Of a DNA stretch of 64,000 nt, positions 4,043-27,846 are shown one piece after another. The position numbers and the translations under genes were made by a program. The notes below the pieces were generated by a model. The model saw only the letters and a program-made list of their open reading frames with translations, did no database searches and was not told the DNA's origin. Origin of the DNA: an uncultured virus (IMG/VR IMGVR_UViG_3300042449_001682) (lineage: Duplodnaviria; Heunggongvirae; Uroviricota; Caudoviricetes); IMG/VR virus record IMGVR_UViG_3300042449_001682; one strand, given 5' to 3'. How positions within the stretch are numbered: the stretch's first letter is position 1; every line of letters begins with the position of its first letter.

Positions 4043-4070
4043 AAAAAAACCCTCAGTAGAGGGTTTTTCT
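4043..4070. terminator. Bidirectional intrinsic terminator
   Basis: AAAAACCCTC-AGTA-GAGGGTTTTT hairpin flanked by A and T runs between convergent genes. Confidence 0.85.
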
Positions 4071-4762: not shown

Positions 4763-6019
4763 ATGAGTAAAATTAATATATTAGTAGTACCAAGTGACAG
4801 AACAGGAGTGAGTTATTATAGGTCAACAATCCCACACATTAAATTAGAAGAATACTTTCCTAATGACTTTAAGGTTGATATTGACTACGAACCAGATTTA
4901 AATAATGACTCATATCTTAAACAATATGATTTAATCCACTATCATCGTGCGTTAGGTGATTACGATAATTTACCTAAATTATTAGATAGATGTGATGAAT
5001 TGGGTATTGCCACTATAATGGATCTTGATGATCATTGGTCACCAGGACAAGATCACCCTGCGTGGGCAATTATACAACAACATCAGTTGGATAAAAAGAT
5101 ATTGAATAATATTAAAGTTTCTAGAAACGTAACAACTACAACACCTATTTTTGCAGATGAAATTAGAAGAGTTAATAAAAATGTTTATGTTATCCCTAAC
5201 GCCATTAATCCTGAAGAAAAACAATATAAAAGTAATCCTGAAAAAAGTGATAGGGTAAGAATTGGGTGGTTAGGTGGTTCTTCTCATATAAAAGACTTAG
5301 AAATATTAAAGGGTGTTGTTAGTAAATTTAAAAGTGATGGTTTAATTGATAAGGTACAATTTGTACTTTGTGGGTTTGATTTAAGAGGTAGTGTTACAAC
5401 TATCGATAAGGCAACTGGTCAACAACAACAAAGACCAATCAAACCTATGGAATCTGTTTGGTATCATTACGAAAAAATATTTACTGATGATTATAAAATT
5501 GTTAGTGATGATTATAAAAAATTCTTACACACATTTGAAAACAAAGAATATGAAAATGTAAAAAATGAACCATATAGAAGGGTGTGGACTAAACCTATCA
5601 CATCATACGCATCCAATTATAATCTTTTTGATGTATCTTTAGCACCACTAAAAGAGAGTACTTTTAATAAAGTTAAATCACAATTAAAGGTAATTGAGGC
5701 AGGTTTTCACAAAAAGGCTATAGTTGGACAAGACTTTGGACCTTATAAGATTGATATTGTAGATTCCTATGAAAAAGGTGGTACATATAGTGAAAACGGG
5801 AACGGATTATTAATACCAACAATTAAGAATCATAAATTATGGTATTCACATTTAAGACGATTGGTTGAGAATCCCCAAATTATTACGACTATGGGTGAAA
5901 ACCTTTATAATACCGTTAATGGTAGATATGATATGAAATCCGTTTGTACTCAGAGAAAGGAACTATATAGTAAATTAGTAGAGGAAAAAAAGAACTCTAA
6001 AGTTGATTTAGTCAAATAA
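4763..6019 (+). CDS. Glycosyltransferase, GT-B fold
   Basis: GVSYYRS, MDLDDHW, VIPNAI, RIGWLGGSSH.KDL, DVSLAPL...FNKVKSQLKVIEAG. Confidence 0.85.
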   Translation: MSKINILVVPSDRTGVSYYRSTIPHIKLEEYFPNDFKVDIDYEPDLNNDSYLKQYDLIHYHRALGDYDNLPKLLDRCDELGIATIMDLDDHWSPGQDHPAWAIIQQHQLDKKILNNIKVSRNVTTTTPIFADEIRRVNKNVYVIPNAINPEEKQYKSNPEKSDRVRIGWLGGSSHIKDLEILKGVVSKFKSDGLIDKVQFVLCGFDLRGSVTTIDKATGQQQQRPIKPMESVWYHYEKIFTDDYKIVSDDYKKFLHTFENKEYENVKNEPYRRVWTKPITSYASNYNLFDVSLAPLKESTFNKVKSQLKVIEAGFHKKAIVGQDFGPYKIDIVDSYEKGGTYSENGNGLLIPTIKNHKLWYSHLRRLVENPQIITTMGENLYNTVNGRYDMKSVCTQRKELYSKLVEEKKNSKVDLVK

Positions 6020-6031
6020 AATCCTTATTAT
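6003..6031 (+). promoter_or_regulatory. sigma70-like -35/-10 promoter
   Basis: TTGATT-N17-TATTAT upstream of ATG 6051. Confidence 0.45.
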
Positions 6032-6050
6032 TATAACAAAATATAGTAAT

Positions 6051-6614
6051 ATGGAACTAAAAGATAAAATCTTAAAAAATCGAGAAAAGTTTGAAAAAAC
6101 TAATGGGGTATATAATATCTTCACCGAACAATTGTTAAAGTTTTTAGGTGAGAATCTTTTTACTGCACCCGCATCAAATATGAAAAGTATGTATAATGCT
6201 TTTCCAGGTGGTTTAGTAGATCACATTCTCAAAGTAACTAAATATGCAATTAATATTAACGATACTTTACCTGAAGAATTAAGGGTTGACAAGGCATCAA
6301 TTATTAAAGTATGTTTCCTCCACCAAATAGGTAAGACATTCTTATTTAACTTTTGTGATTCGGAATGGCATAGAAATAATGTTGGTAAAATGTATGACTT
6401 CAACGAAGAATTGATTTCTATGAGAGTCGGTGAAAGATCTGCATTTTATTGTTTAAATAACGGTGTCGAGTTAAGTGAAGAAGAATATCAATCAATACTA
6501 AACTTTGATAAGTCTGATGAGGACAAACAATCTAAGTGGTATGGTAGTACACTGTCAACAGTTTTAAGGATTGCAAATGATTTATCAATAATAGAGTGTA
6601 AAGAAAATAATTAA
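6051..6614 (+). CDS. HD-superfamily (YhaM-like) protein with HQ in place of HD
   Basis: TAPAS...AFPGGLVDHILKV and CFLHQIGK. Confidence 0.7.
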   Translation: MELKDKILKNREKFEKTNGVYNIFTEQLLKFLGENLFTAPASNMKSMYNAFPGGLVDHILKVTKYAININDTLPEELRVDKASIIKVCFLHQIGKTFLFNFCDSEWHRNNVGKMYDFNEELISMRVGERSAFYCLNNGVELSEEEYQSILNFDKSDEDKQSKWYGSTLSTVLRIANDLSIIECKENN

Positions 6615-6615
6615 T

Positions 6616-7176
6616 ATGGACGGATTAGAAAAAGAATTAAGAGAATTAGAGGAACTAAAAAATATTGTTTCTCAAATAGAGGGAATGACTGAGTTAAATT
6701 TAGATAATTTTGAATTTATGACAGAATTTAAGGTGAAAACTAAATTTACTAATACCTCGAATAATCCTGATCCTGAATATGCGAAAGTTGGTGATAGTGG
6801 TTTTGATATTAGGGCTAATATTACTGAACCATTAACTCTTAAACCATTAGAAAGAGTTTTGGTACCTACGGGACTTAGATTTGAATTATCTAGCAACACT
6901 GAATTACAAGTTAGACCTAGAAGTGGTATGGCTTTAAAACACGGTATTAGTGTTTTAAATACACCTGGTACTGTTGATGAGGGATATAGAGGTGAAGTAA
7001 GTATTATTGCAATTAATCTAAGTAATGAAACCTATACCATTAATCCTGGTGAAAGAATTGCACAAGGTGTTATTATGAATGTAGTAGGTCAAGGTATTTC
7101 TGAATTAGTTAAAGTAAATGATTTATCATCTACTGAAAGAGGTAGTGATGGTTTTGGGTCAACAGGTAAGGAGTAA
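6616..7176 (+). CDS. dut: dUTPase (trimeric)
   Basis: SGFDIRA, QVRPRSG, NTPGTVDEGYRGE, ERIAQ, RGSDGFGSTG. Confidence 0.97.
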   Translation: MDGLEKELRELEELKNIVSQIEGMTELNLDNFEFMTEFKVKTKFTNTSNNPDPEYAKVGDSGFDIRANITEPLTLKPLERVLVPTGLRFELSSNTELQVRPRSGMALKHGISVLNTPGTVDEGYRGEVSIIAINLSNETYTINPGERIAQGVIMNVVGQGISELVKVNDLSSTERGSDGFGSTGKE

Positions 7177-7178
7177 TT

Positions 7179-7421
7179 ATGGAAAAAGAAAATTTTACAT
7201 ATCAAATCATAAAAAGTATGGTAAAAAATACCCCTAATGATTCTGAATTGGGTCAAAAAGTTAGAAATTTCTTTAAAGAAGAAGAACAATTAGATGGTGA
7301 TATTGATTTAAAAAAATATATTAAAATGGTTGAAGGTGAAATAGTTATGTCCAACTACAACGATGGTTGGTTGACTGCGTGGTTTAAAGAAAAATTAGAA
7401 AAATTAAGAGATAAAAAATGA
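7179..7421 (+). CDS. Hypothetical protein
   Basis: 80-aa ORF translationally coupled to its neighbours. Confidence 0.6.
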   Translation: MEKENFTYQIIKSMVKNTPNDSELGQKVRNFFKEEEQLDGDIDLKKYIKMVEGEIVMSNYNDGWLTAWFKEKLEKLRDKK

Positions 7422-8881
7422 TAACTATAGGGTATTCAACCAGAGAAAACAATGAAAAGTACATAGATTACTTAAAAAAAACTTGTGGGATAAAAAATGT
7501 TGAGGTTATACAAAAAGTTAATAATGGTGAAAAATCTTTATCACAAGTTTATAATGAAATATTAGATGAATCTACAAATGACATTATAATATTTTGTCAT
7601 GATGATTTAGAATTTGACACATCGAATTGGGGTAAAAGAATAATTAAACATTTTGAAAAATCTGACTTTGGTATTTTAGGTGTCGCAGGAACTACAGAAA
7701 TGCCCAAAAGTGGTATGTGGTGGGAAGACAAAAGAAAAATGGTTGGAATTGTTAACCATAAACATGAAGGTAAAAAATGGGAATCTAAATATTCTAAAAG
7801 TTGGGGTGATGATATAAGTGAATCTTGTATTGTTGATGGATTGTTTATTGCCATTGATAAAACTAAAATTAAGGAAAGGTTTGATGAAAGTGTTAGTGGA
7901 TTCCATTTTTACGATGTATATTTTTCCGTTAAAAATTTCTTAGGTGGTGTTAAAATTGGGGTTATCTTTAATGTTAGGTTAACACACCTATCAATAGGAC
8001 AAACAAATGAATCTTGGGAAGAAAAAAGACAGGTTTTTAGTACTGAATACGAAGATAAGTTACCGTTAAAATCTAACATCAATATAGATTATAACCTAAG
8101 AGAGTTTAAATTTTTAAAGAAATTTAAATTAAAGATTATTTTATCTGCCTCTGAAGACATTGAAAATACTAAAAAATCTATTGAGAAAATAGAATCATTT
8201 AATTTACCTAATTACGATATTAATTTAATATCTAATGACAGTAACTATGAAGAGATTAAGATTTTAGAAAATAAAAATTTAAAAGTTTATGAAGGTTCTT
8301 TTAATGAACAGTCTAAAAATCTTTCTATTTTAAAATGGGAAGATGATTTCATTAATGAAAGTTATGATTTAATTTTTTTCATAGATAAAAATGTTGAATT
8401 ATTAAATAATATTTTTTCATCTATTTGTGAAATATATCATAAAGAAAAAAATGTTTTTGGGTGTGCTTTTACCACATCGATTCAGAAGGATAAATCTATA
8501 TTTAGTTCTAAGTTTAATATAGTAAAAAACAAAGACAATCAGTTAAATCTGTTATTAGATTCAAATGGATCATTTTATAATGTCTTAAATGGATATTCTG
8601 AAAATAAAATGGGTAATTTGTCTGACGTTTTAGCAACTACATATTATAATATTATAAAAAATGATTGGTTTGATATTCAATATGATACCAACGTAGGTTA
8701 TATAGATTTTGCAATAAAATGTTCAAATAGGAAAATAAAATGTTTTTGTGATACAAATTCTGTTACCACACATAATTCATTTAATAATAGTGAATCATTC
8801 CAAAAAGATTTGAATAAATTATTACAGAGTATAGTTTCCAATGAAAATTCACAAAAGTTAATAAAAGAAATTGATGGTTAA
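7418..8881 (+). CDS. Two-domain GT-A (GT2-like) glycosyltransferase
   Basis: IIIFCHDDLEF, GILGVAG, VDGLFIA, FDE..GFHFYD; a second degenerate GT-A-like domain follows. Confidence 0.8.
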   Translation: MITIGYSTRENNEKYIDYLKKTCGIKNVEVIQKVNNGEKSLSQVYNEILDESTNDIIIFCHDDLEFDTSNWGKRIIKHFEKSDFGILGVAGTTEMPKSGMWWEDKRKMVGIVNHKHEGKKWESKYSKSWGDDISESCIVDGLFIAIDKTKIKERFDESVSGFHFYDVYFSVKNFLGGVKIGVIFNVRLTHLSIGQTNESWEEKRQVFSTEYEDKLPLKSNINIDYNLREFKFLKKFKLKIILSASEDIENTKKSIEKIESFNLPNYDINLISNDSNYEEIKILENKNLKVYEGSFNEQSKNLSILKWEDDFINESYDLIFFIDKNVELLNNIFSSICEIYHKEKNVFGCAFTTSIQKDKSIFSSKFNIVKNKDNQLNLLLDSNGSFYNVLNGYSENKMGNLSDVLATTYYNIIKNDWFDIQYDTNVGYIDFAIKCSNRKIKCFCDTNSVTTHNSFNNSESFQKDLNKLLQSIVSNENSQKLIKEIDG

Positions 8882-9659
8882 AATTGTTTCTGGATATACA
8901 GATAAAGGTGGGTCAACAACCGCATTTATTAATCTAACAAATTTTCTAAATGAAAATGGGATTGATTGTGTATTTTATGGTCCACACGAATGGCATTTAA
9001 ATAAATGTAAGTCTTCTCTTATGACAGATTTAGTATATGATGAAGATGATATTGTTATTACCCATTTTTTAGATTTAAAAGAAAGACCAAACGTAAAGAA
9101 GGTAATTTTATCTTGTCACGAAAAATGGTGGTTTCCTGTGGGTAAGATTAAACAACATTGGGATACGGTAGTATTTTTACACGATCAACACAGATCATTT
9201 CATAATGATTATAAGGGTGACTATACAATCATACCTAACCTAAAAGAAAATTTAAAAATTTCTGATAAAACAAATGTTAAAAATATTGCGGGTATTATTG
9301 GTACAATTGAAGATAGGAAACAAACTCATGTGTCTATACAGAGATCATTAAAAGATAAATGTGAAAAGATATATCTATTTGGTCATATCGGTGATGAAAA
9401 ATATTTTAATGATTATGTTAAACCGTTAATGATACCTAATAGGGTGATACAATTTGGTCATACAACTGATAAACAAGAGATGTATGATATGATTGGTAAA
9501 GTTTATCATTCATCTAAAGGTGAAGTTGCCTGTTTAGTAAAAGATGAATGTTATTTAACTAACACAGAATTTTATGGTAATGAGGAGACTGAAAACGAAG
9601 TCTCAAAACTAACTAACGAAGAAGTTTTAGTACTTTGGAAAAAATTATTTAATATATGA
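8874..9659 (+). CDS. Glycosyltransferase, GT-B-like
   Basis: KGGSTTAFINL, IIPNL, GIIGTIEDRK, YHSSKGEVACLVKDEC. Confidence 0.7.
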   Translation: MVKIVSGYTDKGGSTTAFINLTNFLNENGIDCVFYGPHEWHLNKCKSSLMTDLVYDEDDIVITHFLDLKERPNVKKVILSCHEKWWFPVGKIKQHWDTVVFLHDQHRSFHNDYKGDYTIIPNLKENLKISDKTNVKNIAGIIGTIEDRKQTHVSIQRSLKDKCEKIYLFGHIGDEKYFNDYVKPLMIPNRVIQFGHTTDKQEMYDMIGKVYHSSKGEVACLVKDECYLTNTEFYGNEETENEVSKLTNEEVLVLWKKLFNI

Positions 9660-10378
9660 AAATACACTCACACATTTTGGCGTGGAACGAAGAAAAAATT
9701 CTACCCTATACTTTAGATTATTATTCCACATTCTGTGAAAAAATATTCATTTATGATAATATGTCTGATGATAATTCAGATGAAATATATAAAAGATACC
9801 CAAAGGTAGAAGTCATTAAATGGGATAGTAATAATGAAATTAATGAAATAAACTATATAAAATTAAAAACTGAATCCTATAAAGAAAGAAGTAGAAACCA
9901 AAACGTAGATTGGGTAATAGTTTGTGATTGTGATGAATTTCTATATCACCCAAACCTTATTGACGTATTAGTTGATTATAAGAGTAAGGGTATTACAGTA
10001 CCTAAAGTATGTGGACACGATATGGTGTCTGAAATTTTTCCAGAATATGATGGAAAATTATTAGTTGATAAAGTTAAGGTTGGATCAGAAAGATACCAAC
10101 CGATGTGTAAAAACATCATATTTAATCCTGATTTAGATGTTAATTATGGTATTGGTGCACATTCATTTAATTGTGATAATGCCGTTTTTTCGGAAACAGA
10201 GGAGTTAAAATTATTACACTATAAATTTTTGGGTAAAGATTACGTTAAAAAATTATATATTGATAGGGCTAAAAGATTATCTAGTTTCAATAAAGAAAAT
10301 AAATTCGGTGAACACTATTTTAACCTTCCATTTAATTATATGAATGAAATGATAAAAAATAATTTTCAGGTGATATGA
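9656..10378 (+). CDS. Glycosyltransferase, GT2-like
   Basis: WNEEKIL, YDNMSDDNS, DWVIVCDCDEF (DxD), LLHYK. Confidence 0.85.
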   Translation: MKIHSHILAWNEEKILPYTLDYYSTFCEKIFIYDNMSDDNSDEIYKRYPKVEVIKWDSNNEINEINYIKLKTESYKERSRNQNVDWVIVCDCDEFLYHPNLIDVLVDYKSKGITVPKVCGHDMVSEIFPEYDGKLLVDKVKVGSERYQPMCKNIIFNPDLDVNYGIGAHSFNCDNAVFSETEELKLLHYKFLGKDYVKKLYIDRAKRLSSFNKENKFGEHYFNLPFNYMNEMIKNNFQVI

Positions 10379-11199
10379 GAAAAATATTAATATCTGATTT
10401 TACAATAAATGAGGTACCACACGGTGGTTCTGAGTGGGTTAATCAAGTTCTAATTGAAAAATTTGATTTAGATTTTGAATATTCAAATATGGTTAAGAAT
10501 TTTGATGTGAATAATTTCTACATTATTTCAAATATATCACAAATGAATCCTAATTTAATTAGACAGATACCTAATTTAAATTATATTATAGTAGAACACG
10601 ATTATAAAATATGTCATTCTAGACACCCTTGGAGATATGAAGATAGTATTGTACCAGTTCAAGAAAGGATAAATTATGATATCTACGAAAATGCGAAGGC
10701 GGTATTTGTTCAGACTACTGATCACCTAAATGTTTATTTAAAAAACGATGTAAAGGGCAACTTTATTAATTTGGGTAGTTCTATATGGTCAGAAAGTGAT
10801 TTAAATTTGTTAACTGAATTATTAGAAAAAAACAAAACAAAAAACGGTAAGTATTCGGTTTACTATACAACAAATTGGATTAAAAACACTCAAGGTAATT
10901 TAAAATATTGTAGTGAAAATAAACTATCCGTATCAATATTAAAAGAAAGTAAAAATAGAGTTGAGTTTTTAGAAAGTCTATCTAAGTCTGAAGGTATTGT
11001 TTTTTATCCTTTGGCGAGGGAAACTTTTTGTAGATTAGTTGTGGAAGCCAAATGTTTGGGGTTAAATGTAATAACATCTAAAAATTATGGTGCATCTTTA
11101 GAAGATTGGTTTGACAAATATAGTGGTAAAGATATGATAGATTTTTTAAGAAATAATACTGATAAAAATTTAGTGACTATATCTGAATTTTTAGATTAA
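10375..11199 (+). CDS. Glycosyltransferase, GT-B-like
   Basis: HGGSE N-terminus; ETFCRLVVEAKCLG (E-x7-E). Confidence 0.75.
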   Translation: MRKILISDFTINEVPHGGSEWVNQVLIEKFDLDFEYSNMVKNFDVNNFYIISNISQMNPNLIRQIPNLNYIIVEHDYKICHSRHPWRYEDSIVPVQERINYDIYENAKAVFVQTTDHLNVYLKNDVKGNFINLGSSIWSESDLNLLTELLEKNKTKNGKYSVYYTTNWIKNTQGNLKYCSENKLSVSILKESKNRVEFLESLSKSEGIVFYPLARETFCRLVVEAKCLGLNVITSKNYGASLEDWFDKYSGKDMIDFLRNNTDKNLVTISEFLD

Positions 11200-11209
11200 T
11201 AAATATAAA

Positions 11210-11938
11210 ATGAAATTAGTTGTAGGTGTAACACTTTATAATAGTGGAAATATAGTAGAGAAAACATTACAGTCTATAAAGGATCAAACATTTAAAAAAT
11301 TTGTTTGTTATATAACTGATGATTTATCTACCGATAATTCTGCAGAAGTAGTTAAGAATTTTATTAAAGGTGATGATAGATTTCACTTAATAAAAAATAC
11401 TGAGAAAAAATATCAAGGTGGTAATTATGATTTGATATGTAGGGATACAGAAGGCATTGATGATAATGACATTTTTGTGGAGGTTGATGGTGATGATTGG
11501 TTACCAGATAATAAAGTTTTTGAGAGGGTTATATTACATTATTCTGATAAAAACATATGGATTGCAAATGGTTCGTTTATGTATTCTGACGGCAGAAGTG
11601 GATTTTCTTCTAAAATTACTGATTTTGAAAGGTTAAGACATCTTACATTCACCGCCTCACATCTTAGAACTTGGAAAATATTTCTTTGGAGAGATATAAA
11701 AATTGAAGATTTAAAGGATGATAGTGGGAATTACTGGTCGACAACAGGTGATTTATCTTTTATGTTCCCTATGTTAGAAATGTCTGGTGAAAATCATTAT
11801 AAATTTATGAATGAAATAAATTATATATATAATGAACAAAATCCATTAAACGATCATAAAATTAATAGAGATAAAGTTAGTTTTTATGTTAATTACGCAA
11901 AAAACAAAAAAAGATATGAGAGGAAAAATGAATTATAG
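11210..11938 (+). CDS. Glycosyltransferase family 2
   Basis: LYNSG, DDLSTDNS, VDGDDWL, YIYN. Confidence 0.9.
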   Translation: MKLVVGVTLYNSGNIVEKTLQSIKDQTFKKFVCYITDDLSTDNSAEVVKNFIKGDDRFHLIKNTEKKYQGGNYDLICRDTEGIDDNDIFVEVDGDDWLPDNKVFERVILHYSDKNIWIANGSFMYSDGRSGFSSKITDFERLRHLTFTASHLRTWKIFLWRDIKIEDLKDDSGNYWSTTGDLSFMFPMLEMSGENHYKFMNEINYIYNEQNPLNDHKINRDKVSFYVNYAKNKKRYERKNEL

Positions 11939-11980
11939 TGTTGATAGAATATCTCCTAATAAAATATAGATAATTAACTA

Positions 11981-12009
11981 TTCAAATTTCTGACAATAAT
12001 AGTTATACT
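11981..12009 (+). promoter_or_regulatory. sigma70-like promoter heading the nucleotide-sugar block
   Basis: TTCAAA-N17-TATACT in the main intergenic gap of the cluster. Confidence 0.4.
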
Positions 12010-12030
12010 TAATGTTATAAAATAAAAAAA

Positions 12031-12981
12031 ATGGAAAGAAAAAAAATATTTATTACGGGAGGTGCTGGATACATTGGTACGTCTTTAATTCCCTTACTAC
12101 TAGAAAAAAATTATGAAGTTACTGTATACGATTCTTTAATTTTTAATAATGGGGATAAATTGATACCTTACTACGGAAATGAAAACTTTAAATTTATTTA
12201 TGGTGATATCAGAGATAAAAATAAACTTAAAGAATCTATTAACGGTTACGATATTGTAATCCATCTAGCTGCTTTAGTTGGGTTCCCTATTTGTAGAGAA
12301 AAAGGTGAATCTGAATCTTATGAAATTAACACTGTCGGTACTAAAAATGTTATAGAATGTTTAAATGAAACACAGTACCTATTATTTGGATCAACAGGGT
12401 CAAACTATGGTGAAGTAGATGGTGTATGTACTGAAGAAACGGAATTAAATCCATTATCAATTTATGGGAGGACTAAAACTTTAGCAGAAAAATTAGTTAT
12501 GGATAGAAATAATAGTACTGCATTTAGATTTGCAACCGCTTTTGGACTTTCACCTAGATTACGTTTAGATTTGTTGGTTAATGATTTAGCCTTTAAAGCA
12601 ATTAAAGAGGGGTATGCGGTTATATATGAATCACATTTTTTAAGAACATTTATTCATGTTAAAGATATCGCGAGAGCATTCATTTTTGCAATAGAAAATC
12701 AAGAAGAAATGAAAAATAATACATACAATGTTGGGTCAAATAAAATGAATTACTCTAAAAAAGAAATTTGTGAGTTAATTAAAAAAGAAATTCCGACAGT
12801 ATATTTTAATTACGCAGATATTGGTGAAGATGCAGATAAAAGAAACTACGTTGTAAGTTATGATAAAATAAACAAATTAGGTTTTGATGTCACAATTGAT
12901 GTTGAGAGTGGGATAAATGAACTTGCTAAATGTTTGCCACACATAAGACTTAATAACCCATACTTAAATATTGTAAAATGA
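12031..12981 (+). CDS. NAD-dependent nucleotide-sugar epimerase/dehydratase
   Basis: ITGGAGYIG, HLAA, YGRTK (YxxxK). Confidence 0.92.
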   Translation: MERKKIFITGGAGYIGTSLIPLLLEKNYEVTVYDSLIFNNGDKLIPYYGNENFKFIYGDIRDKNKLKESINGYDIVIHLAALVGFPICREKGESESYEINTVGTKNVIECLNETQYLLFGSTGSNYGEVDGVCTEETELNPLSIYGRTKTLAEKLVMDRNNSTAFRFATAFGLSPRLRLDLLVNDLAFKAIKEGYAVIYESHFLRTFIHVKDIARAFIFAIENQEEMKNNTYNVGSNKMNYSKKEICELIKKEIPTVYFNYADIGEDADKRNYVVSYDKINKLGFDVTIDVESGINELAKCLPHIRLNNPYLNIVK

Positions 12982-17441: not shown

Positions 17442-17453
17442 TATAATTTAAAT

Positions 17454-18628: not shown

Positions 18629-18630
18629 AT

Positions 18631-19548: not shown

Positions 19549-19549
19549 A

Positions 19550-20167
19550 ATGAATTTAAATTTAATAAATCAAGAATCAAATGTAAAATGGTTTGCGGAT
19601 AATGGTAATTATACACATGCCATAAATTATAATATTAATGAAGACTCTATGGTAGTCGATGTAGGTGGGTACATAGGTTTATGGGCAGATTTAATTATTG
19701 AAAAATATAACCCATTCATTACTATAGTGGAACCCATAAAAGATTTTTATGATCAACTATGTGATAAGTTTAAGGATAACCCTAAAGTAACGGTGTTAAA
19801 TTATGGTATATCTACTACCAACAAGTCTGATGTCATATATCTAAATGGTGATGGGACATCAAAATATCTTACTAACGACAAACCTATTACAGTTAATTTT
19901 ATTACAATAGATGAATTGTTGGAAATTATAAAAAGAGATAATGTTGAATTAATGCAAATTAATATAGAAGGTGAAGAATTCCCATTATTAGAGAATATGA
20001 TAGACACTGGAAGCATTTTAAAATTTAACAACATACAAGTTCAGTTTCATACATTTATTGAAGATGCCCTTGAAAAAAGGAATAATATACAAAAGGGTTT
20101 AGAAAAAAATAATTTCAAAAAATTATATGATTACCCATTTGTGTTTGAGGCTTGGTCATTAAAATAA
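19550..20167 (+). CDS. FkbM-family SAM methyltransferase
   Basis: VDVGGYIG, VEP, INIEGEE, QVQFH. Confidence 0.85.
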   Translation: MNLNLINQESNVKWFADNGNYTHAINYNINEDSMVVDVGGYIGLWADLIIEKYNPFITIVEPIKDFYDQLCDKFKDNPKVTVLNYGISTTNKSDVIYLNGDGTSKYLTNDKPITVNFITIDELLEIIKRDNVELMQINIEGEEFPLLENMIDTGSILKFNNIQVQFHTFIEDALEKRNNIQKGLEKNNFKKLYDYPFVFEAWSLK

Positions 20168-20171
20168 TTTT

Positions 20172-21083
20172 ATGGGAAATATTGTAGTAACAGGTGGTTC
20201 TGGTTTGGTTGGTAAAAGTTTAAAAAAATACTTACCTAATGCAGTTTATTTATCGTCTAAAGATTTTGATTTAACGACAGAAAATGGTGTAAAAAATATG
20301 TATGAAACATATAAACCTAATGTCGTTATCCATTTAGCCGCTAAGGTTGGTGGTATTATTGATAATATTAATAAACCCGCAGAATATTTTACTGAAAATA
20401 TTTTAATGAATACACTATTGGTAGAATATGCAAAAAAATATGGTGTAAAAAGATTTGTTGGGATTTTAAGTACATGTATTTTTCCCGATGTTTCCAATGA
20501 ATACCCAATGAAAGAGGAATCATTACATTTAGGCCCACCAACTGAAACTAATTTTTCTTATGGTTATGCAAAAAGAAGTTTGGCAGTTCAAATAGATGCA
20601 TATAATAAACAATACGGAACTAAATATCAATACCTCACACCTTGTAATTTGTATGGATTAGACGATAAAGATGGTGAAAATAATAGTCATTTTATCACTG
20701 CATTGATTAAAAAAATATTCGACGCTAAACAAAAAAATGAGAATAAAATTACTTTGTACGGTGATGGATCACCACTTAGACAATTTATGTACTCTGATGA
20801 TTTTGCCAAAATTATCTATGATGTCATAGATAAAGAAATTTATGAAAGTTTTAATGTAGCCTCTTTCGAGAATTTATCAATTAAGGAAATGTCGGAAATT
20901 GCACTTAAATCTTGTGGGGGAGAACATTTAGAAATTATATGGGACAATACAAAACCTAATGGTCAATATAGAAAAGATGTCTCAATTGAAAAATTAAAAT
21001 CTTTATTACCAGAATTTAACCCAATACCATTATCTGATGGAATAAAATTAGTTTATAAAAATTATTATGATAAAGTTAGTTAG
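20172..21083 (+). CDS. fcl: GDP-L-fucose synthase / GDP-colitose synthase (Fcl/ColC-type)
   Basis: TGGSGLVG, HLAAKVGGI..N, STCIFP, GPP..TN..YGYAKR, SHFI, G.GSPLRQFMY. Confidence 0.88.
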   Translation: MGNIVVTGGSGLVGKSLKKYLPNAVYLSSKDFDLTTENGVKNMYETYKPNVVIHLAAKVGGIIDNINKPAEYFTENILMNTLLVEYAKKYGVKRFVGILSTCIFPDVSNEYPMKEESLHLGPPTETNFSYGYAKRSLAVQIDAYNKQYGTKYQYLTPCNLYGLDDKDGENNSHFITALIKKIFDAKQKNENKITLYGDGSPLRQFMYSDDFAKIIYDVIDKEIYESFNVASFENLSIKEMSEIALKSCGGEHLEIIWDNTKPNGQYRKDVSIEKLKSLLPEFNPIPLSDGIKLVYKNYYDKVS

Positions 21084-22218
21084 TGATACAATTAATAAAG
21101 AAATTATTAAATCTTTATGTGAGTGGTTATCACAAGATGAAATACCTAGATTAACCAAAGGGGATTTAACCGTAGAATTAGAAAATGAATGGGCAAAAAA
21201 AATAGGTACTAAGTATTCTGTTTTTGTTAACTCAGGATCATCCTCAATACTATTAACCTTAGCGGCACTAATACAATCTAAAAAATTAAAAAATAATAAG
21301 ATTATTGTTCCTGGATTAAGTTGGGCAACAGATGTTAGTACCCCTATGATACTTAATATGGAAACATTTATGTGTGACTGTAATTTAAGTGACTTATCTT
21401 GTGATTTAAATCATTTAGAAAAATTATTTATAGAACACAACCCCTCTGTTTTTATATTAGTCTCACCTTTAGGTTTAGTACCTGATATGGAAAAAATTGT
21501 TGACTTATGTGATAAATATGATGTTGTTTTACTTGAAGATGTATGTGAGAGTATGGGATCAAAATATGGTGATAAATATTTAGGCACGTTTGGTTTTGCC
21601 TCTTTCTTCTCTATGTATTTTGGGCATCATCTAAGTACCATTGAGGGAGGTTTCATCAATACAGACGATGAAGATTTTTATCATTTATTATTAATGATGA
21701 GAAGTCATGGTTGGGATAGAGATTTACCTAAATGGAAACAAACCGAACTTAGAGAAAAGTACTCAACAAACGATTTTGATTCCCTTTATAATTTTTATGT
21801 ACCAGGACTTAATTTAAGATCAACTGACCTTCAAGCATTTATTGGTATTAAATCAATTCAAAACTTAGACAACTATTCGGTAATAAGGAATGAAAATTTT
21901 AATGAATATATTAAAAATATTAATATAAATGAATTAAGTATAAAAAATGAACCCATTAATTTTATTTCAAACTTTGCCTTTCCTGTTGTATCAAAGTATA
22001 GGGATAAAATAGTGAAAGAATTAATAGAAAATAATATTGAAGTGAGACCTTTAATTGCTGGTGATATGTCTAAAAAACCTATGTGGTTTGAAAAATATGG
22101 GGTTAATAAATTACCTAACTGTGAATTTATTAACCAATATGGATTTTATGTACCGAATCATCAAAATTTAACTAAAGAAAATATTTTAAATATAACTAAA
22201 ATCATTAATAATGGGTAA
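21067..22218 (+). CDS. colD: ColD-like GDP-4-keto-6-deoxymannose 3-dehydratase (DegT family)
   Basis: VNSGSS, LEDVCESMG, SMYFGHHLSTIEGG (His in place of the Schiff-base Lys), RSHGWDR, G.NLR.TD, RPLIAG; sits between gmd and the reductase. Confidence 0.75.
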   Translation: MIKLVSDTINKEIIKSLCEWLSQDEIPRLTKGDLTVELENEWAKKIGTKYSVFVNSGSSSILLTLAALIQSKKLKNNKIIVPGLSWATDVSTPMILNMETFMCDCNLSDLSCDLNHLEKLFIEHNPSVFILVSPLGLVPDMEKIVDLCDKYDVVLLEDVCESMGSKYGDKYLGTFGFASFFSMYFGHHLSTIEGGFINTDDEDFYHLLLMMRSHGWDRDLPKWKQTELREKYSTNDFDSLYNFYVPGLNLRSTDLQAFIGIKSIQNLDNYSVIRNENFNEYIKNININELSIKNEPINFISNFAFPVVSKYRDKIVKELIENNIEVRPLIAGDMSKKPMWFEKYGVNKLPNCEFINQYGFYVPNHQNLTKENILNITKIINNG

Positions 22219-23194
22219 AAAAATTGCACTTATAACTGGAATAAATGGACAGGATGGTTCATATTTGGCAGAATTTCTTTTAGAAAAAGGTTATGTGGTT
22301 CACGGTATATTAAAAAGAAATTCTGTTGCAGAAAATCAAACTGCTAGGTTAGATAATGTGTATGATAAAGTAAAATTACATTATGGTGATTTAACGGATA
22401 TGTCATCATTAATTAGTGTTATACAGAAAGTAATGCCTGATGAAATATATAATTTGGCTGCACAATCACATGTTAGAATTTCATTTGATCAACCATTATA
22501 TACTTCTAATGTTACTGGATTAGGAACTTTAAATCTCCTTGAGTCGATTAAACTAATCAAACCCGACACTAAAATTTATCAAGCATCGTCATCAGAAATG
22601 TTCGGTAACTCAATCGATTCTGATGGGTACCAAAGAGAAACTACCCCTATGAATCCAGTTTCACCATACGGATGTGCTAAAGTATTTAGTTATAATATTT
22701 GTCGTAACTACAGAAACTCATATGGTATGTTTGTTTCTAATGGTATTTTATTTAATCACGAATCCCCAAGAAGGGGTACAAACTTCGTAACCAATAAAGT
22801 ATGTAAAGAAGCAGTTAAGATAAAATTAGGGTTGTCTAATGAATTAAAATTGGGTAATCTTGATGCTACAAGAGATTGGGGTCACGCTAAAGATTATGTT
22901 AAAGCGATGTGGGAGATTCTACAATTAAAAAATCCTGACGATTTCGTATGTTCAACGGGAACATCACATTCAGTTAGAGAGCTTGTCACATATGTTTTCA
23001 ATAGGTTAGGGTTAGATTGGGTTGACTATGTGAAACAAGATGAAAAATTCTTAAGACCTGAAGAATTACACGATTTAAAAGGTGATTCATCTAAATTAGT
23101 TAAAAACACAGGATGGTTACCCTATTATACATTCGAAACGATGTTAGATGAAATGATTGACTATTGGTTAATTTATTATAACATTCACAATTAA
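22211..23194 (+). CDS. gmd: GDP-mannose 4,6-dehydratase
   Basis: ITGINGQDGSYLAE, YNLAAQSHV..SF, QASSSEMFG, SPYGCAK, NGILFNHESPRRG, RDWGHA. Confidence 0.97.
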   Translation: MGKKIALITGINGQDGSYLAEFLLEKGYVVHGILKRNSVAENQTARLDNVYDKVKLHYGDLTDMSSLISVIQKVMPDEIYNLAAQSHVRISFDQPLYTSNVTGLGTLNLLESIKLIKPDTKIYQASSSEMFGNSIDSDGYQRETTPMNPVSPYGCAKVFSYNICRNYRNSYGMFVSNGILFNHESPRRGTNFVTNKVCKEAVKIKLGLSNELKLGNLDATRDWGHAKDYVKAMWEILQLKNPDDFVCSTGTSHSVRELVTYVFNRLGLDWVDYVKQDEKFLRPEELHDLKGDSSKLVKNTGWLPYYTFETMLDEMIDYWLIYYNIHN

Positions 23195-23218
23195 TAAAAA
23201 CAAACTTAAAATTAAATT

Positions 23219-23974
23219 ATGTCAAGAAGAAAAAATAGAAAACTTTCTGAAGAAGATCTTAGAGAAGTAGAAGAATTTATCTACAGAAAAAATGATGAAG
23301 AGGAAAAATTTCTATCATCAATGTTCGTTAACGTTAAATGTAAAAACGAAAACCAAAAAAAATTAGTTGACTCTATAAAAAATAATCAAATAACTATTGT
23401 ATCTGGTTTACCTGGAACAGGTAAGACTTTTATAGCGTGTGCCGAAGCACTTAAAATTGTTAAGTCTAGAACCAAATATAAGAAGATTCTATTAGTTAAA
23501 TCTGTCACACAATTACCAGGAGAAGAATTAGGTTTTCTACCAGGTGATTTAAAAGAAAAATTAGAACCATATATGATTTCATTTATAGATAACTTTGAAA
23601 AAATTATTGGTGAAACAATGACTAGGAAATTAAGGGAATTAGGTATCATTAGTATACAACCATTAGCGTTTGTTAGAGGTAGAAGTATTGATAATACAAT
23701 TATCATTGTTGATGAGGCACAAAATATATCACTCTCAAATATGAGAACTCTAATGACTAGAATTGGTAATGATTCGAAAATGGTAATTTTAGGTGATGTT
23801 AAACAAAGAGATATTAAAAAGAAAAGTGATAGTTCTTTAGAAATAATAATAAATAGATTTGAAGATAAAGAAGATTTTGGTACAGTTACTTTGAGAGATG
23901 AAGGTGATATTGTTAGGAACCCACTTATTAAAACTATTGAGGATATTTTCGATCAAATAGAAGAAAATAAATAA
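23219..23974 (+). CDS. phoH: PhoH-family ATPase
   Basis: GLPGTGKT, LGFLPGDL.EK..PY, RGRS, DEAQN, TRIG, GD..Q.D, VRNPL. Confidence 0.95.
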   Translation: MSRRKNRKLSEEDLREVEEFIYRKNDEEEKFLSSMFVNVKCKNENQKKLVDSIKNNQITIVSGLPGTGKTFIACAEALKIVKSRTKYKKILLVKSVTQLPGEELGFLPGDLKEKLEPYMISFIDNFEKIIGETMTRKLRELGIISIQPLAFVRGRSIDNTIIIVDEAQNISLSNMRTLMTRIGNDSKMVILGDVKQRDIKKKSDSSLEIIINRFEDKEDFGTVTLRDEGDIVRNPLIKTIEDIFDQIEENK

Positions 23975-23977
23975 AAA

Positions 23978-24127
23978 ATGAAAAAATTTTTTTTGAAAAC
24001 TAAAAAAGGTGAGGTGATTAATTACACAACACAAGAAAATGAAATTTTAGCAATAAAATATTTTTCTAAAATGAAGGGGTTGAGTAAAGAAGATTTATTA
24101 AAAATTTTTAATATAGAAAAAGAATGA
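23978..24127 (+). CDS. Small hypothetical protein (49 aa, below the ORF-track cut-off)
   Basis: MKKFFLKTKKGEVINYTT...IFNIEKE fills the gap; its TGA overlaps the next ATG (ATGA). Confidence 0.65.
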   Translation: MKKFFLKTKKGEVINYTTQENEILAIKYFSKMKGLSKEDLLKIFNIEKE

Positions 24128-24756
24128 TAGTAGGTATAACAATCGATGGTGTAGTTAGAGACTTCATCTCAAAATTTGAATCTGTATATGATAAATATTA
24201 CCCTAACGAAGAGGATACTGAAAACGATGGCGTTGAAGTTGAATTAGGAAGAAGAGTTATAGATACATTAGATTTATTAGAACATTTTGATTTTAAAGGT
24301 GGTGAGGAAGAATTAAATAAATTCTTATATGTGGATTCATCTTTAGAAATTTTTGGTCATGCAGGTGAGGTAAAATTAAATTCTGTGGAACATTTAAATC
24401 AACTACATAATATCATAGAAGATATGGGACATACTCCAGTGGTAATAAGTAAGGAATTAAATAATAGTAAACCCGCAACTTTATTCTTTTTATCTAAATT
24501 ATCAGCAAAAGTTAATAATATTATTTTTGTAAGAGATTATGATAAGAAATGGGATCATGTTGATGTATTAATCACTGCAAACCCATCCGCTTTGAATTGT
24601 AAACCAAATGATAAGATTTCCATAAAAGTAATAAATCATTACAATAAAAATTGTAACTCTGATTATACAATTATTGATCTTAAAGAAATAATTGATGATA
24701 AAAAACTTTTAGGTAAAATTTTAAACACAGAAACAGTAGATTTTGAAGATGTTTAA
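24124..24756 (+). CDS. HAD-fold 5'(3')-nucleotidase-like protein with degenerate motif I
   Basis: IVGITIDGVVRDF resembles I.IDxDGV..DF; also VVISKE and DVLITANP. Confidence 0.6.
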   Translation: MIVGITIDGVVRDFISKFESVYDKYYPNEEDTENDGVEVELGRRVIDTLDLLEHFDFKGGEEELNKFLYVDSSLEIFGHAGEVKLNSVEHLNQLHNIIEDMGHTPVVISKELNNSKPATLFFLSKLSAKVNNIIFVRDYDKKWDHVDVLITANPSALNCKPNDKISIKVINHYNKNCNSDYTIIDLKEIIDDKKLLGKILNTETVDFEDV

Positions 24757-24801
24757 CATTTACTTATTAATATAAAATATTAAATTAATAAAAAATAAAA
24801 T

Positions 24802-25131
24802 ATGGAAAACTTATTATTAGAAATTGGGGGTAAAGAATTATATATTGATGTTGAAAGATTATCAGAGATAGTTAGAATTGAGCCGAGTGAAAAAATTGTT
24901 AAGAATTTAGAAACTGAAGAAGAAACTGAAGAAGAAAACTTATTAGACGATTCAGTAGTTCAAATAGACGTAACAAAATATGAACTATATAGAGAGATGG
25001 TGGGAACACTTTTATCGTATAATGAGGAAATAGATAATAGAATGGGTAAAGTAGCCTTAAATGCAACGTCAGTCCCATTTAAACTAGCGTACAACACTCT
25101 TTTAATGAAGGGTATAATAAGAGAATTATAA
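24802..25131 (+). CDS. Hypothetical acidic protein
   Basis: 109-aa ORF with an A-rich leader. Confidence 0.65.
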   Translation: MENLLLEIGGKELYIDVERLSEIVRIEPSEKIVKNLETEEETEEENLLDDSVVQIDVTKYELYREMVGTLLSYNEEIDNRMGKVALNATSVPFKLAYNTLLMKGIIREL

Positions 25132-25152
25132 ATAATAATAAAATAAAATGCT

Positions 25153-26283
25153 ATGAGTGAACAATTAGAAAAAATTAAAGAATCAATTGGAAAAATAGAG
25201 AATAAAGATTTCGGTATTTATTTCTTTACAATTGACACCAAAGGTAATCCTACTGCAGGTGTCGCAACAATTTACGAACACGTAAAAAAACTTAGAGAAT
25301 TGGGATATAATGCCAATATTCTTCATGATAAGAATGATTATAAACTAAGAGAAGATGAAGAAGGTATGGGTATTGCTGAATGGTTAGGTGAAGAATACGC
25401 TAACTTACCACACGTATCTATCGAATCACAAAAATTACAGGTTGGACCTTACGATTTTGTAGTAATACCTGAAGCATTTGCTAGTATTATTAAACAAACA
25501 GTTAATTTCCCTTGTAAGAGAATTGTATTCTTACAGTCTTATGAGTACATTTTTGAAATGTTAGAAATCGGTGAAGGTTGGGAACAATTTGGAATTAGTG
25601 ATGTAATTACTACAAACGAAAATTTGAGTAATTATGTTAATTCTACATTTAGAAATTTAAGAACAGATATTATCCCAATAGGTATTCCCGAATATTTTAA
25701 GAATTCTAACGAACCGAAAATACCAACTATTGCTATGTCCGCTAGAGATAAAAGAGAGTTATTGAAAATTGTGAAAATTTTCTATCAGAAATATCCACAC
25801 TATAGATTTGTAACATTTAGAGATATGTCAGGTTTACCTAGAGAAATGTTTGCAAAAGAATTGTCAAAATCTTTTGTTAGTGTTTGGATTGATGAACTAT
25901 CTAGTTTTGGTACGTTCCCATTAGAGTCTATGAGAACTAAAACACCTGTTATTGGTAAAATACCGAGAATGGTGCCAGAATGGATGGGATCTATTGATGA
26001 GAATGGTAACCTTAATCTTAATGATAATGGTATTTGGACACCTAACCTTAATTCTATTCCCGATATTATTGCAACTATGGTTGGGTTATATTTAGAGGAT
26101 GCTATTCCTGAAAACATAATGAATGGTATGAGTGAATGGGAAAACAAATATAGTACAGAAGAATCAGATAAAATTTTATCTGAAGTTTATAAAGGAATTT
26201 TTGATAGGAGGATTGTTGAGTTACAACACACTTACGATCAACTAAAACAAAAAGAAGAAACACTAACAGTAGAAAACAATTAA
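25153..26283 (+). CDS. Glycosyltransferase, GT-B-like
   Basis: AGVATIYEHV..L.ELGY, DFVVIPE, SSFGTFPLESM...PVIG. Confidence 0.75.
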   Translation: MSEQLEKIKESIGKIENKDFGIYFFTIDTKGNPTAGVATIYEHVKKLRELGYNANILHDKNDYKLREDEEGMGIAEWLGEEYANLPHVSIESQKLQVGPYDFVVIPEAFASIIKQTVNFPCKRIVFLQSYEYIFEMLEIGEGWEQFGISDVITTNENLSNYVNSTFRNLRTDIIPIGIPEYFKNSNEPKIPTIAMSARDKRELLKIVKIFYQKYPHYRFVTFRDMSGLPREMFAKELSKSFVSVWIDELSSFGTFPLESMRTKTPVIGKIPRMVPEWMGSIDENGNLNLNDNGIWTPNLNSIPDIIATMVGLYLEDAIPENIMNGMSEWENKYSTEESDKILSEVYKGIFDRRIVELQHTYDQLKQKEETLTVENN

Positions 26284-26287
26284 AATT

Positions 26288-27064
26288 ATGACAAAAATAA
26301 CAGTATTAGTACCAGTTCATAAGTTAGAAGGAGAATATCTAACTAGATGTATTGAAAGTATTAAAAATCAAAAAGTTAAACCACATGAGGTTTTATTTAT
26401 CACATCAAATGATAAGGATGTAAATAAATTTTTAACAGAATATGATTACGGTGATTTAAAAGAAATCACTAAAGTAATTGAAAACGAAACTGGTGAGTAT
26501 GATTTCCAGTCACAGATTAATTTTGGTGTAGAAAAATCTAGTGGAGATTATTTCACTTTTGTGGAATACGATGACGAACTTTCACCAATATGGATTAAAA
26601 ATGGAATTCAATATTCTGAATCTTATCCTGAGGTTGGTATATTTTTACCAATAGTTTATGAAACTGACGAAAATGGTAGATTTATTTCCTTCACTAATGA
26701 GAGTGTGTGGGCAAAAGATTTCACTGAACAATCAGGATATTTAGATAATAATACATTACAAAGAGTTCAGAACTTTAATTTTGATGGTATGGTTGTTAAC
26801 AAAGAACTTTTCTTAGAACACGGTGGGTTAAAGAAAAATATTAAATTAACTTTTACCTATGAGTTTTTATTGAGAATGTCATATTTATCGATTCCTATTA
26901 TGGTAATTCCTAAATTGGGGTATAAACACACAAACAATAGAGAAGGTTCTTTATTTGTAGAATATAAGAACACTATCGATGTTTTAGAAAGTAAATTTTG
27001 GGTTAACAAAGCTAAAAAAGAATATTTTTTCACTGAAGATAGGGAAATAACATATGAACCATAA
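26288..27064 (+). CDS. Glycosyltransferase family 2
   Basis: TVLVPVH, CIESIKNQ, INFGV...GDYFTFVEYDD, EFLLR. Confidence 0.85.
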   Translation: MTKITVLVPVHKLEGEYLTRCIESIKNQKVKPHEVLFITSNDKDVNKFLTEYDYGDLKEITKVIENETGEYDFQSQINFGVEKSSGDYFTFVEYDDELSPIWIKNGIQYSESYPEVGIFLPIVYETDENGRFISFTNESVWAKDFTEQSGYLDNNTLQRVQNFNFDGMVVNKELFLEHGGLKKNIKLTFTYEFLLRMSYLSIPIMVIPKLGYKHTNNREGSLFVEYKNTIDVLESKFWVNKAKKEYFFTEDREITYEP

Positions 27065-27073
27065 ACATTCGTT

Positions 27074-27808: not shown

Positions 27809-27822
27809 AATTTTAAAATTAG

Positions 27823-27830: not shown

Positions 27831-27846
27831 AGGAAAATACATTAAT

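Follow-up and report, generated by a model that had tools for sequence, protein, structure and literature searches.

A swappable cassette of glycosyltransferase and sugar-pathway genes in a fixed slot of an aquatic phage lineage

Large clusters of glycosyltransferase (GT) and nucleotide-sugar genes are already known from large cyanomyoviruses, and glycosylation of the virus particle by enzymes of the virus itself is established for chloroviruses and mimiviruses (PMC9614988) and has been reported for mycobacteriophages (as cited in PMC12619734). According to the account in PMC12801897, the cyanomyoviruses P-SSM2, S-SCSM1 and S-SCSM2R are large aquatic phages with a T4-like head that combine Gmd and GDP-fucose synthase with GT10, GT11, GT25 and GT2 enzymes; S-SCSM2R is credited there with 13 GTs and reported to carry pgaA, and the clusters are read as host-surface modification, a function described as experimentally untested. 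Here we analyze a similar gene set at positions 4763-27064 of a 64,000-nucleotide stretch of DNA (IMG/VR record IMGVR_UViG_3300042449_001682, hereafter the window, meaning the whole stretch) from an uncultured virus of the Caudoviricetes. The window phage belongs to another lineage than the cyanomyoviruses, the GenBank capsid proteins closest to its own (42–43% identical) being those of an uncultured 484-kb phage, Microcystis phage Mel-JY01 and Flavobacterium phage immuto, and unlike in the cyanomyoviruses its genes sit in one fixed slot flanked by lineage-core GTs.

In chlorovirus PBCV-1 and Mimivirus, as summarized in PMC9614988, viral GMD and GMER act on host GDP-mannose, the GTs are soluble and cytoplasmic, and the sugar clusters are clade-specific. 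The window lineage, too, has soluble GTs and donor pathways of its own, clustered in a lineage-specific manner, and these viruses would offer the closest functional analogy to the reading favored below. However, in these giant viruses of eukaryotes the glycan structures have been determined chemically, on capsid protein or fibrils, whereas the window phage is known from its genes alone, and its GTs have generic GT-B matches only and no specific homology to those of giant viruses. Mycobacteriophage GTs are reported to modify particle proteins without export machinery, with the glycans sitting at the C-terminal ends of the capsid and tail-tube subunits (cited in PMC12619734). The window capsid protein differs from these in having no Ser/Thr-rich C-terminal tail, and no tail-tube gene was identified in the window. 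The mycobacteriophage systems described by Freeman et al. in 2023 reportedly possess few GTs and no large nucleotide-sugar pathways.

Bacterial O-antigen loci, such as that of Escherichia coli O55 with WbdK/ColD, share with the window Gmd, a ColD-type dehydratase, an Fcl-like reductase, a perosamine-synthase-like aminotransferase and fucosyltransferase-family GTs, as well as semi-conserved ends around a swappable middle. They differ in that the window locus is phage-borne and lacks an initiating transferase, Wzx, Wzy, Wzz and an ABC transporter. The moraphages, freshwater Bacteroidota jumbo phages of 200–307 kb, have PhoH, a ClpA-type ATPase, DnaJ and a T4-like head and baseplate, with four putative GT orthogroups among the conserved orthogroups studied (PMC12619734). 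By its list of traits the window lineage is moraphage-like, being aquatic and having PhoH, a ClpA/B-like ATPase, four conserved GT genes and DnaJ, the last encoded in the largest related record (G002; 253,879 bp, CheckV completeness 78%), which is a relative and a different genome from the window. Because G002 reaches this length at that completeness, the lineage is considered jumbo-sized. In its treatment of the conserved orthogroups the moraphage paper lists GTs alone and describes no variable cassette, sugar pathways or lack of export genes (PMC12619734), and for the window lineage our literature search retrieved no paper on missing export genes, a colitose branch or a swappable cassette in a fixed slot.

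An IMG/VR search with the GT of 25153-26283 returned 36 loci (47–100% identity), and a second one with the GT of 7418-8881 added three more; window proteins were compared with the resulting 39 loci by tblastn. The GTs at 4763, 25153 and 26288, as well as the type of GT that heads the island at 7418, are fixed across the lineage. While 25153 occurs in 36/36 loci by construction, being the search query, the adjacent GT2 gene has a homolog in 36/36 as well (41–100% identity), and so do the sigma-like gene at 27074 and the genes downstream of it. The genes at 24124 and 24802 are present in every locus reaching them and PhoH in most. On the left side, the GT at 4763, the conserved gene at 6051 and the dUTPase are retained in every locus extending that far, with identities of 48–80% for 4763 (L010, L011, L039, and L041), 63–79% for 6051 (seven loci) and 45–76% for the dUTPase (10 loci). 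A GT with the Glyco_tranf_2_5 domain follows the dUTPase in 9/9 distinct loci showing this flank; these island-head GTs are usually fused to a GT4 or GT2 domain and measure 485–811 amino acids (aa).

Between these flanks, the stretch from dUTPase to PhoH (7179-23194) is a mosaic, swappable cassette with semi-conserved ends. The initial annotation of the window, made from its letters and ORF translations, had proposed core GTs around an exchangeable block; the synteny comparison confirms this design, but moves the boundaries from 12031-23194 to 7179-23194. The separate promoter postulated for 12031 finds no support, as just 92 bp separate this gene from its neighbor and the sigma-70 promoter scan was uninformative (142 sites vs 141.8 expected). 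Gmd, usually together with Fcl, stands at the right slot end in about half of the loci, the Gmd of the window being 62–75% identical to that of 17 further loci and 100% identical in L004 and L005. The slot measures 16.0 kb in the window and 5.0–7.7 kb in six other distinct versions with both flanks, and exceeds 8 kb in many loci whose left flank falls outside the fetched DNA. Its limits are visible also in the DNA: L007 is collinear with the window over 23178-36308 at 85.9% identity and leftward shares solely Gmd (74%), at a different position, and the DNA homology of L010 and L012 stops at 7172-7177, apart from a weak stretch (65–68%) in the N-terminal domain of the first island GT. About 18 different versions of the slot middle occur among the loci. 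They encode transferases of the GT10, GT11, GT25, GT61, GT92, GT-D and GT32-like types and FkbM, TylF and other methyltransferases, together with sulfotransferases, a pyruvyl transferase, hexapeptide and GNAT acyltransferases, a PIG-L deacetylase, WbqC, GFO/IDH oxidoreductases, UDP-GlcNAc 2-epimerases, a C5-epimerase and nucleotidyltransferases. The slot itself is modular, because L039 shares with the window 7418-11199, including 8871, 9656 and 10375 (72–81% identity; flank genes 47–51%; different content beyond), and L009 the trio of ColC candidate, ColD and Gmd (63–74%).

All 27 long open reading frames (ORFs) in 4763-27064 lie on the plus strand, in a same-strand run that extends to 27808 (Table 1). 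The co-oriented block of about 22 kb recognized by the initial annotation is thus real, and Pfam and NCBIfam confirm the Gmd, two Fcl-like reductases, two DegT enzymes, epimerase, short-chain dehydrogenase/reductase (SDR), acyltransferase, PhyH and FkbM listed there. Its count of about 11 GTs holds for nine, supported by Pfam, PHROG or fold, whereas the remaining two (8871 and 10375) have weak indications only. Likewise, the span is not purely one of glycan genes, but also contains the dUTPase, PhoH, the lead for an NT5C-like protein at 24124 and the unknowns at 6051, 7179 and 24802. The "late sigma factor" following the span is a sigma-like gene in all 36 loci, though its domain match stays below threshold. 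Upstream of the block, a strong bidirectional terminator-like hairpin (4043-4070; 10–12 pairs) separates the convergent ORFs 3465-4040 (+) and 4073-4642 (-); no comparable terminator was found inside 4763-23194.

Table 1. Features of the window (a single number followed by "start" denotes the first position of a gene)
Position	Strand	Feature	Evidence
1309-1337, 2122, 27823, 31899, 37633, 38381, 39736, 41688, 45390, 50356, 51204, 51223, 61224		ATATTTAT(A) sites	
4763-6019	+	Conserved left-flank GT-B (GT4-like)	PHROG 7162 "glycosyltransferase" 2.8e-39; weak Pfam GT-B signal
6051-6614	+	Conserved unknown	
6616-7176	+	dUTPase, left anchor of slot	PF00692 8.6e-26
7179-7421	+	80-aa ORF, left slot edge	No Pfam, PHROG or NCBIfam match; no homolog in 39 related loci
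7418-8881	+	Island-head GT	Glyco_tranf_2_5 PF13712 5.8e-26, then ~270 aa without family match
8871-9659	+	GT-B-like, lead only	Atlas neighbors carry Glycos_transf_1
9656-10378	+	GT2_4	Pfam 1.6e-16
10375-11199	+	Weak GT1 (GT-B)	Pfam, sub-threshold
11210-11938	+	GT2	Pfam 1.5e-17
12031 start	+	NAD-dependent sugar epimerase/dehydratase	PF01370 3.3e-36; GalE model 7.1e-33, sub-cut-off
12978-13799	+	GT11 fucosyltransferase-family	PF01531 5.5e-18
13784-14641	+	GT10 fucosyltransferase-family	PF00852 1.6e-8
14628 start	+	Sugar aminotransferase, perosamine-synthase-like	DegT 7.7e-96; PDB perosamine synthetase 2.1e-42 among many sugar aminotransferases
15722-16648	+	Fcl-like GDP-fucose synthase	GDP-L-fucose synthase 3e-30; NCBIfam Fcl 8.6e-43, sub-cut-off
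16632-17441	+	FUT8/NodZ-like (GT23-like) candidate fucosyltransferase, weak	PF19745 3.6e-5, 23.2 bits vs cut-off 27.6
17454 start	+	FabG-like SDR	Intact, GGTGGLG present
18098 start	+	Hexapeptide N-acyltransferase	Best PDB: 3vbi-3vbp set, 1.2e-27
18631 start	+	PhyH dioxygenase	Pfam
19550-20167	+	FkbM methyltransferase	Pfam
20172-21083	+	Fcl-like reductase, ColC candidate	Fcl model 1.9e-59, sub-cut-off; adjoins ColD
21067-22218	+	ColD-type 3-dehydratase (DegT family)	Best PDB: ColD/WbdK, 7.4e-58
22211-23194	+	Gmd, GDP-mannose 4,6-dehydratase	PF16363 9.7e-118, full length; TIGR01472 397 bits vs cut-off 415
23219 start	+	PhoH, right anchor of slot	1.3e-60
24124 start	+	NT5C-like protein	Atlas lead only
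24802 start, ends by 25131	+	Unknown core protein	
25153-26283	+	Lineage-core GT-B (GT4-like)	No Pfam match; profile and fold
26288-27064	+	Lineage-core GT2	PF00535 6.8e-15; best PDB GalT1 9.7e-8
27074-27808	+	Sigma-like protein, last of co-oriented block	Sigma70_r2 1.9e-4, sub-threshold
34239-36035	-	Capsid protein	Gp23 2.5e-72
37671-38360	-	Prohead protease	
39763-41658	-	Portal	9.2e-77
41712-43508	-	Large terminase	

Two of the fixed GTs were assigned with the help of structure prediction. For the left-flank enzyme at 4763, neither the single sequence (no PDB match) nor profile A2 (only four weak GT1/PglA matches, E 0.011–0.14) was informative, and the AlphaFold2 model (predicted local distance difference test, pLDDT, 79.6) retrieved retaining GT4 enzymes as top Foldseek matches, namely GlgM (6.7e-12), the mannosyltransferase of methylmannose polysaccharide (MMP) synthesis and BshA. 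For the core GT-B at 25153, a profile of 13 homologs had a sole PDB match, 8xsg (AmGGT; 8.2e-14, identity about 20%), and 8xsg was again the best Foldseek match of the model (pLDDT 84.7; 1.8e-15), followed by MMP mannosyltransferase and GtfA. The sequence of the island-head GT had no match in the PDB.

The sugar-pathway genes of the cassette point to three nucleotide-sugar donors. Judged by family homology, Gmd would convert GDP-mannose to GDP-4-keto-6-deoxymannose, which may feed three branches; since no ManB or ManC is encoded in the window, the GDP-mannose would come from the host. In the first branch, the Fcl at 15722 would form GDP-L-fucose. In the second, ColD (21067) and the other Fcl-like reductase (20172) would yield GDP-L-colitose. 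Both the E-value and the active site mark 21067 as a ColD-type enzyme, as its GHH motif aligns to the SHH of ColD and places a His where aminotransferases carry the Schiff-base Lys; the position mutated in 3b8x (SNH) corresponds to the first His, and the aligned ColD residue is presumably His188. In the third, the aminotransferase at 14628 and the N-acyltransferase at 18098, aided by the SDR, PhyH and FkbM enzymes, may provide an N-acylated perosamine-like sugar, possibly hydroxylated or methylated. The structures 3vbi-3vbp, which are closest to this acyltransferase, we take to be AntD, the N-acyltransferase of a 4-amino-4,6-dideoxy sugar. Among the 39 loci, the tailoring set 17454-20167 recurs solely in L004 and L005, both near-identical contigs. 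The predicted donors are GDP-fucose, GDP-colitose and a perosamine-like sugar with an N-acyl group, and the GT10, GT11 and GT23-like enzymes would transfer 6-deoxy sugars, three fucosyltransferase-family GTs fitting 6-deoxy-L-sugar donors.

Two peculiarities of these enzyme families were noted in related islands. The Gmd of L029 (L029:4942-7107) has 721 aa, and its dehydratase domain is matched in two stretches that flank a LAGLIDADG-like insert, which looks like an intein or homing endonuclease. Half-size proteins of 197–226 aa in several islands (L010:4838-5482, L035:2585-3238, L039:18030-18629, and L040:8044-8724) match the 360-position DegT profile just over positions 24–100 or so; because they recur, they probably constitute a distinct short family and are not fragments.

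All enzymes of the locus look soluble, and membrane, carrier-lipid and export parts were not found in the window or the examined relatives. That flippase, polymerase, exporter, initiating transferase and multi-pass membrane protein are missing had been remarked for the window from the start, and it holds equally for 19 related loci and the scanned ORFs of G002. A hydropathy scan detected no ORF with two separate membrane-segment candidates among the 71 of the window, and none with at least two among 193 non-redundant island and flank ORFs of the 19 loci. The maximum among 309 ORFs of G002 was three candidates; 14 ORFs had two or three, and Pfam scans of nine of these identified only an SPFH/Band 7 protein and no export family. 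When G002 ORFs with 110 aa or more were searched with Pfam (200 of 223), no flippase, polymerase, ABC exporter or initiating transferase turned up, and neither Bac_transf nor Glycos_transf_4 was found by Pfam in the window. Moreover, Bac_transf (PF02397) was absent from five related records, the control being positive in 10/14 genomes, and Wzx (PF01943) was also absent from five (six records in all, taken together with the PF02397 set), with positive control genomes.

Expression signals set the glycan genes apart from the structural genes. The motif ATATTTAT occurs 37 times in the window, a count reached by 0/100 shuffles (24.6 ± 4.5 expected), and 14 of the 37 sites lie 20–71 nt (mostly 20–28 nt) upstream of a start on the same strand. 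It precedes virion genes, the fiber gene, 27847 and 31920, and no glycan gene. The gene at 27847, next after the sigma-like gene, is the first plus-strand gene in 27074-33332 with ATATTTAT; upstream of its homologs the motif is intact in 17/20 relatives and differs by one base in the other three, while the spacer around it diverges. We regard ATATTTAT as a candidate late promoter, whose core TATTTATA we take to be the reverse complement of the T4 late-promoter octamer. As they have no ATATTTAT upstream, the glycan genes do not belong to the regulon of the virion genes. The sigma-like gene closes their run, suggesting that they are expressed ahead of the late genes, and this is compatible with action on the virion or on the host envelope.

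What the glycan is attached to can be answered tentatively at best. Our preferred reading, held with somewhat less than even confidence, is that the acceptor is a conserved phage-encoded protein, probably virion-associated. The locus would then be a self-contained cytoplasmic glycan-assembly system of a jumbo phage with a T4-like head, in which the fixed GTs attach an inner glycan, itself conserved, to a conserved phage protein, most likely a virion part such as capsid, fiber or decoration protein, and the cassette adds a variable outer glycan, so that related phages would differ in glycan "serotype"; synthesis of the glycan enzymes appears to precede the expression of the late virion genes. 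A conserved first acceptor is suggested because the GTs are fixed in a lineage whose core proteins have diverged to 37–51% identity. GTs and donor pathways are numerous enough for the de novo construction of a whole oligosaccharide. In addition, AmGGT, the sole solved sequence relative of the core GT-B 25153, is presented in PMC12159676 as a paralog of Actinobacillus ApAgt (51% identity), a cytoplasmic extender of protein-linked glucose, and this family membership may count in favor of a phage-protein acceptor. So may the solubility of the enzymes, the export machinery missing from the window and the scanned relatives, and the precedents of PBCV-1, mimiviruses and mycobacteriophages.

Several points weigh against a virion protein as the acceptor. 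No acceptor was pinpointed by any computation, and the fold neighbors of both GT-B models are generic GT4 enzymes, none of which points to a DNA-, protein- or lipid-linked acceptor. The families GT10, GT11, GT25 and WbqC are typical of lipid-linked O-antigen or lipopolysaccharide (LPS) synthesis, in which the peripheral GTs are soluble too. The glycan genes are not co-regulated with the virion genes. The capsid C-terminus has no Ser/Thr-rich tail, and N-X-S/T sequons are not enriched, neither in the capsid protein (six observed vs 5.9 expected from shuffles) nor in other virion proteins, where the top z was 2.0 (scaffold-like 36073-37569) and nearly all ORFs equal the shuffle expectation. Unlike the Actinobacillus NGT/Agt system, the window has no NGT/HMW1C-like initiating enzyme in any of the Pfam scans, and AmGGT itself is described as not using glycopeptides (PMC12159676). 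Finally, beyond the window the negative result for export genes leans on G002, which is about 78% complete and whose Pfam scan covered 200 of the 223 ORFs with 110 aa or more and none of the shorter ones.

The sequon idea, invoked by the initial annotation as a pointer to virion proteins, was accordingly rejected as support for glycosylation, since the counts equal the shuffled expectation. A capsid "insertion" considered as acceptor was discarded as well, being merely the divergent middle of a gp23-type protein without compositional signal. By composition alone, the minus-strand ORF 2-1294, which runs off the window start and contains 27% Ser/Thr, is an acceptor candidate. The G002 ORF at the matching position (L053:8292-13436; matched by position only) is a fiber of 1,714 aa ending in a Peptidase_G2 intramolecular-chaperone domain, and ORF 2-1294 is a candidate for the N-terminus of a long tail fiber. 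The highly acidic scaffold-like protein 36073-37569 (-), which adjoins the capsid gene, has a duplicated C-S-E-C-G-S-G motif, possibly a metal site.

The best-surviving alternative, somewhat unlikely in our estimation, is remodeling of the host envelope. Phage GTs would act on host undecaprenyl-linked intermediates at the cytoplasmic face, and the initiating transferase, flippase or ABC exporter and ligase of the host would display an altered LPS, capsule or O-glycan, which could block superinfection, keep progeny from binding to debris or alter how grazers recognize their prey. The homologous clusters of P-SSM2, S-SCSM1 and S-SCSM2R are usually read in this way (PMC12801897), and Gmd proteins of several such phages are 50–53% identical to that of the window. 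The GT and tailoring families match the repertoire of O-antigen and capsule loci (GT10, GT11, GT25, WbqC, and sulfo-, pyruvyl- and methyltransferases), the cassette is exchanged like a serotype locus, and the genes, having no virion-gene motif, are compatible with early or middle expression. However, no lipid-carrier, flippase, polymerase or ligase gene is present in the 193 ORFs of the 19 loci or the scanned G002 ORFs, a complete de novo glycan would hinge on the Wzx/Wzy specificity of the host, and the benefit to a lytic phage is unclear. Three or four GTs fixed across 37–51% divergence would also suit a conserved phage acceptor better.

It is unlikely that the acceptor is another soluble compound, such as a free cytoplasmic oligo- or polysaccharide on the model of the mycobacterial MMP, a small molecule, a non-virion phage protein or a host protein. 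Both GT-B folds are neighbors of MMP mannosyltransferase and of the small-molecule GTs BshA, MshA, GlgM and TreT, methyltransferases are frequent in the islands, and AmGGT is described as elongating free oligosaccharides (PMC12159676). Nevertheless, these fold neighbors are just generic GT4 enzymes, no aglycone pathway was seen, and the hypervariability among close relatives suggests an exposed, recognized product over an internal metabolite.

Very unlikely, in turn, is a more specific role on the particle surface, by which the island would determine a glycan "serotype" whose fucosylated, methylated, sulfated or pyruvylated sugars mimic algal or environmental polysaccharides, which the presumed Bacteroidota hosts take up by way of glycan-binding proteins on their surface, and serve as adsorption bait for these hosts. 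If so, cassette swapping would retarget or diversify host binding, and the locus would be a phage counterpart of giant-virus glycan coats with about 10 GTs and three donor pathways, a scale of glycosylation not yet shown for any phage particle.

DNA hypermodification, in which the GTs would glycosylate a modified pyrimidine as protection against restriction and which the initial annotation had named as a second possible acceptor, is barely plausible. Ten or eleven GTs of fucosyl-type specificity are far more than known DNA glycans call for. LPS-enzyme-related phage GTs are reported to put mono- to trisaccharides on 5-hydroxymethylcytosine (bioRxiv 10.1101/2023.12.21.572611), thymidylate-synthase homologs can make 5-hydroxy-deoxycytidine monophosphate (5-hydroxy-dCMP) for arabinosylation according to PMC13326640, and the island adjoins a dUTPase, with a ThyA homolog at 53004-54053 (-). 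This ThyA, however, retains the residues aligned to L143, C146, D169 and N177 (VLPPCH, QRSAD, and PFNIASY) and matches solved thymidylate synthases with an E-value of 2e-77; the enzymes making hydroxymethyl- or hydroxy-dCMP carry N177D, L143D/E or D169N (PMC13326640), and because these substitutions are absent, ThyA is canonical and the DNA alternative disfavored. In the window and the scanned G002 ORFs, Pfam found neither TET/JBP nor C5-methyltransferases but N6/N4 methylases only, and the PhyH protein belongs to a dioxygenase family other than TET/5mYOX. That the lineage assembles readily in thousands of metagenomes is a further, weak point against modified DNA. Apart from its canonical active site, the ThyA has an insertion of about 40 residues (roughly 192–234) relative to the solved enzymes.

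Elsewhere, the window carries on its minus strand the head module, of T4 type, of a tailed phage (Pfam and PHROG), and Pfam identifies PhoH, dUTPase, thymidylate synthase, an N6/N4 DNA methylase and a ClpA/B-type ATPase as further genes. The GC content is low (0.24–0.36 across the 64 kb), and that of the island equals that of its flanks. DNA-level searches for near and distant matches among GenBank phages found none, nor did tblastn of 25153 and of 7418 against the same phages. The lineage is nevertheless very common in public metagenomes, and aquatic: at least 3,106 homologs of the 25153 GT and at least 7,994 of the 4763 GT were retrieved, on contigs of up to 287 kb. Two related records, G003 and G004 (loci L025 and L035; contigs of 152–198 kb), are tagged "provirus" by IMG/VR though the lineage looks lytic; the bacterial look of the glycan island may have given rise to this tag as an artefact. 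G002 additionally encodes two more sigma factors, a histidine kinase accompanied by a response regulator and, in the interval from PhoH to the NT5C-like gene, a SET-domain protein (L044:2494-3021, L048:11314-12111, L054:10241-10621, and L042:18121-19776). An unusual phage cargo in the window is a small CAP-domain protein (58189-58689, +; cysteine-rich secretory family, 4.2e-11) with an apparent N-terminal signal peptide.

The lineage thus spends 5–16 kb or more on a glycan locus that evolves like a serotype locus and comes without means of exporting its product. The locus is also a source of predicted soluble fucosyl-, colitosyl- and perosaminyl-type transferases. Finding the acceptor would answer the old question posed by the "LPS genes" of large aquatic phages, namely whether these build a particle coat or remodel the host surface, and the interest of the locus lies chiefly in the fact that an abundant lineage makes this long-standing question testable. 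Should the acceptor prove to be the virion, abundant environmental phages would join the carriers of complex autonomous glycosylation, for which chemical proof exists so far in giant viruses of eukaryotes and, for a simple kind, in mycobacteriophages.

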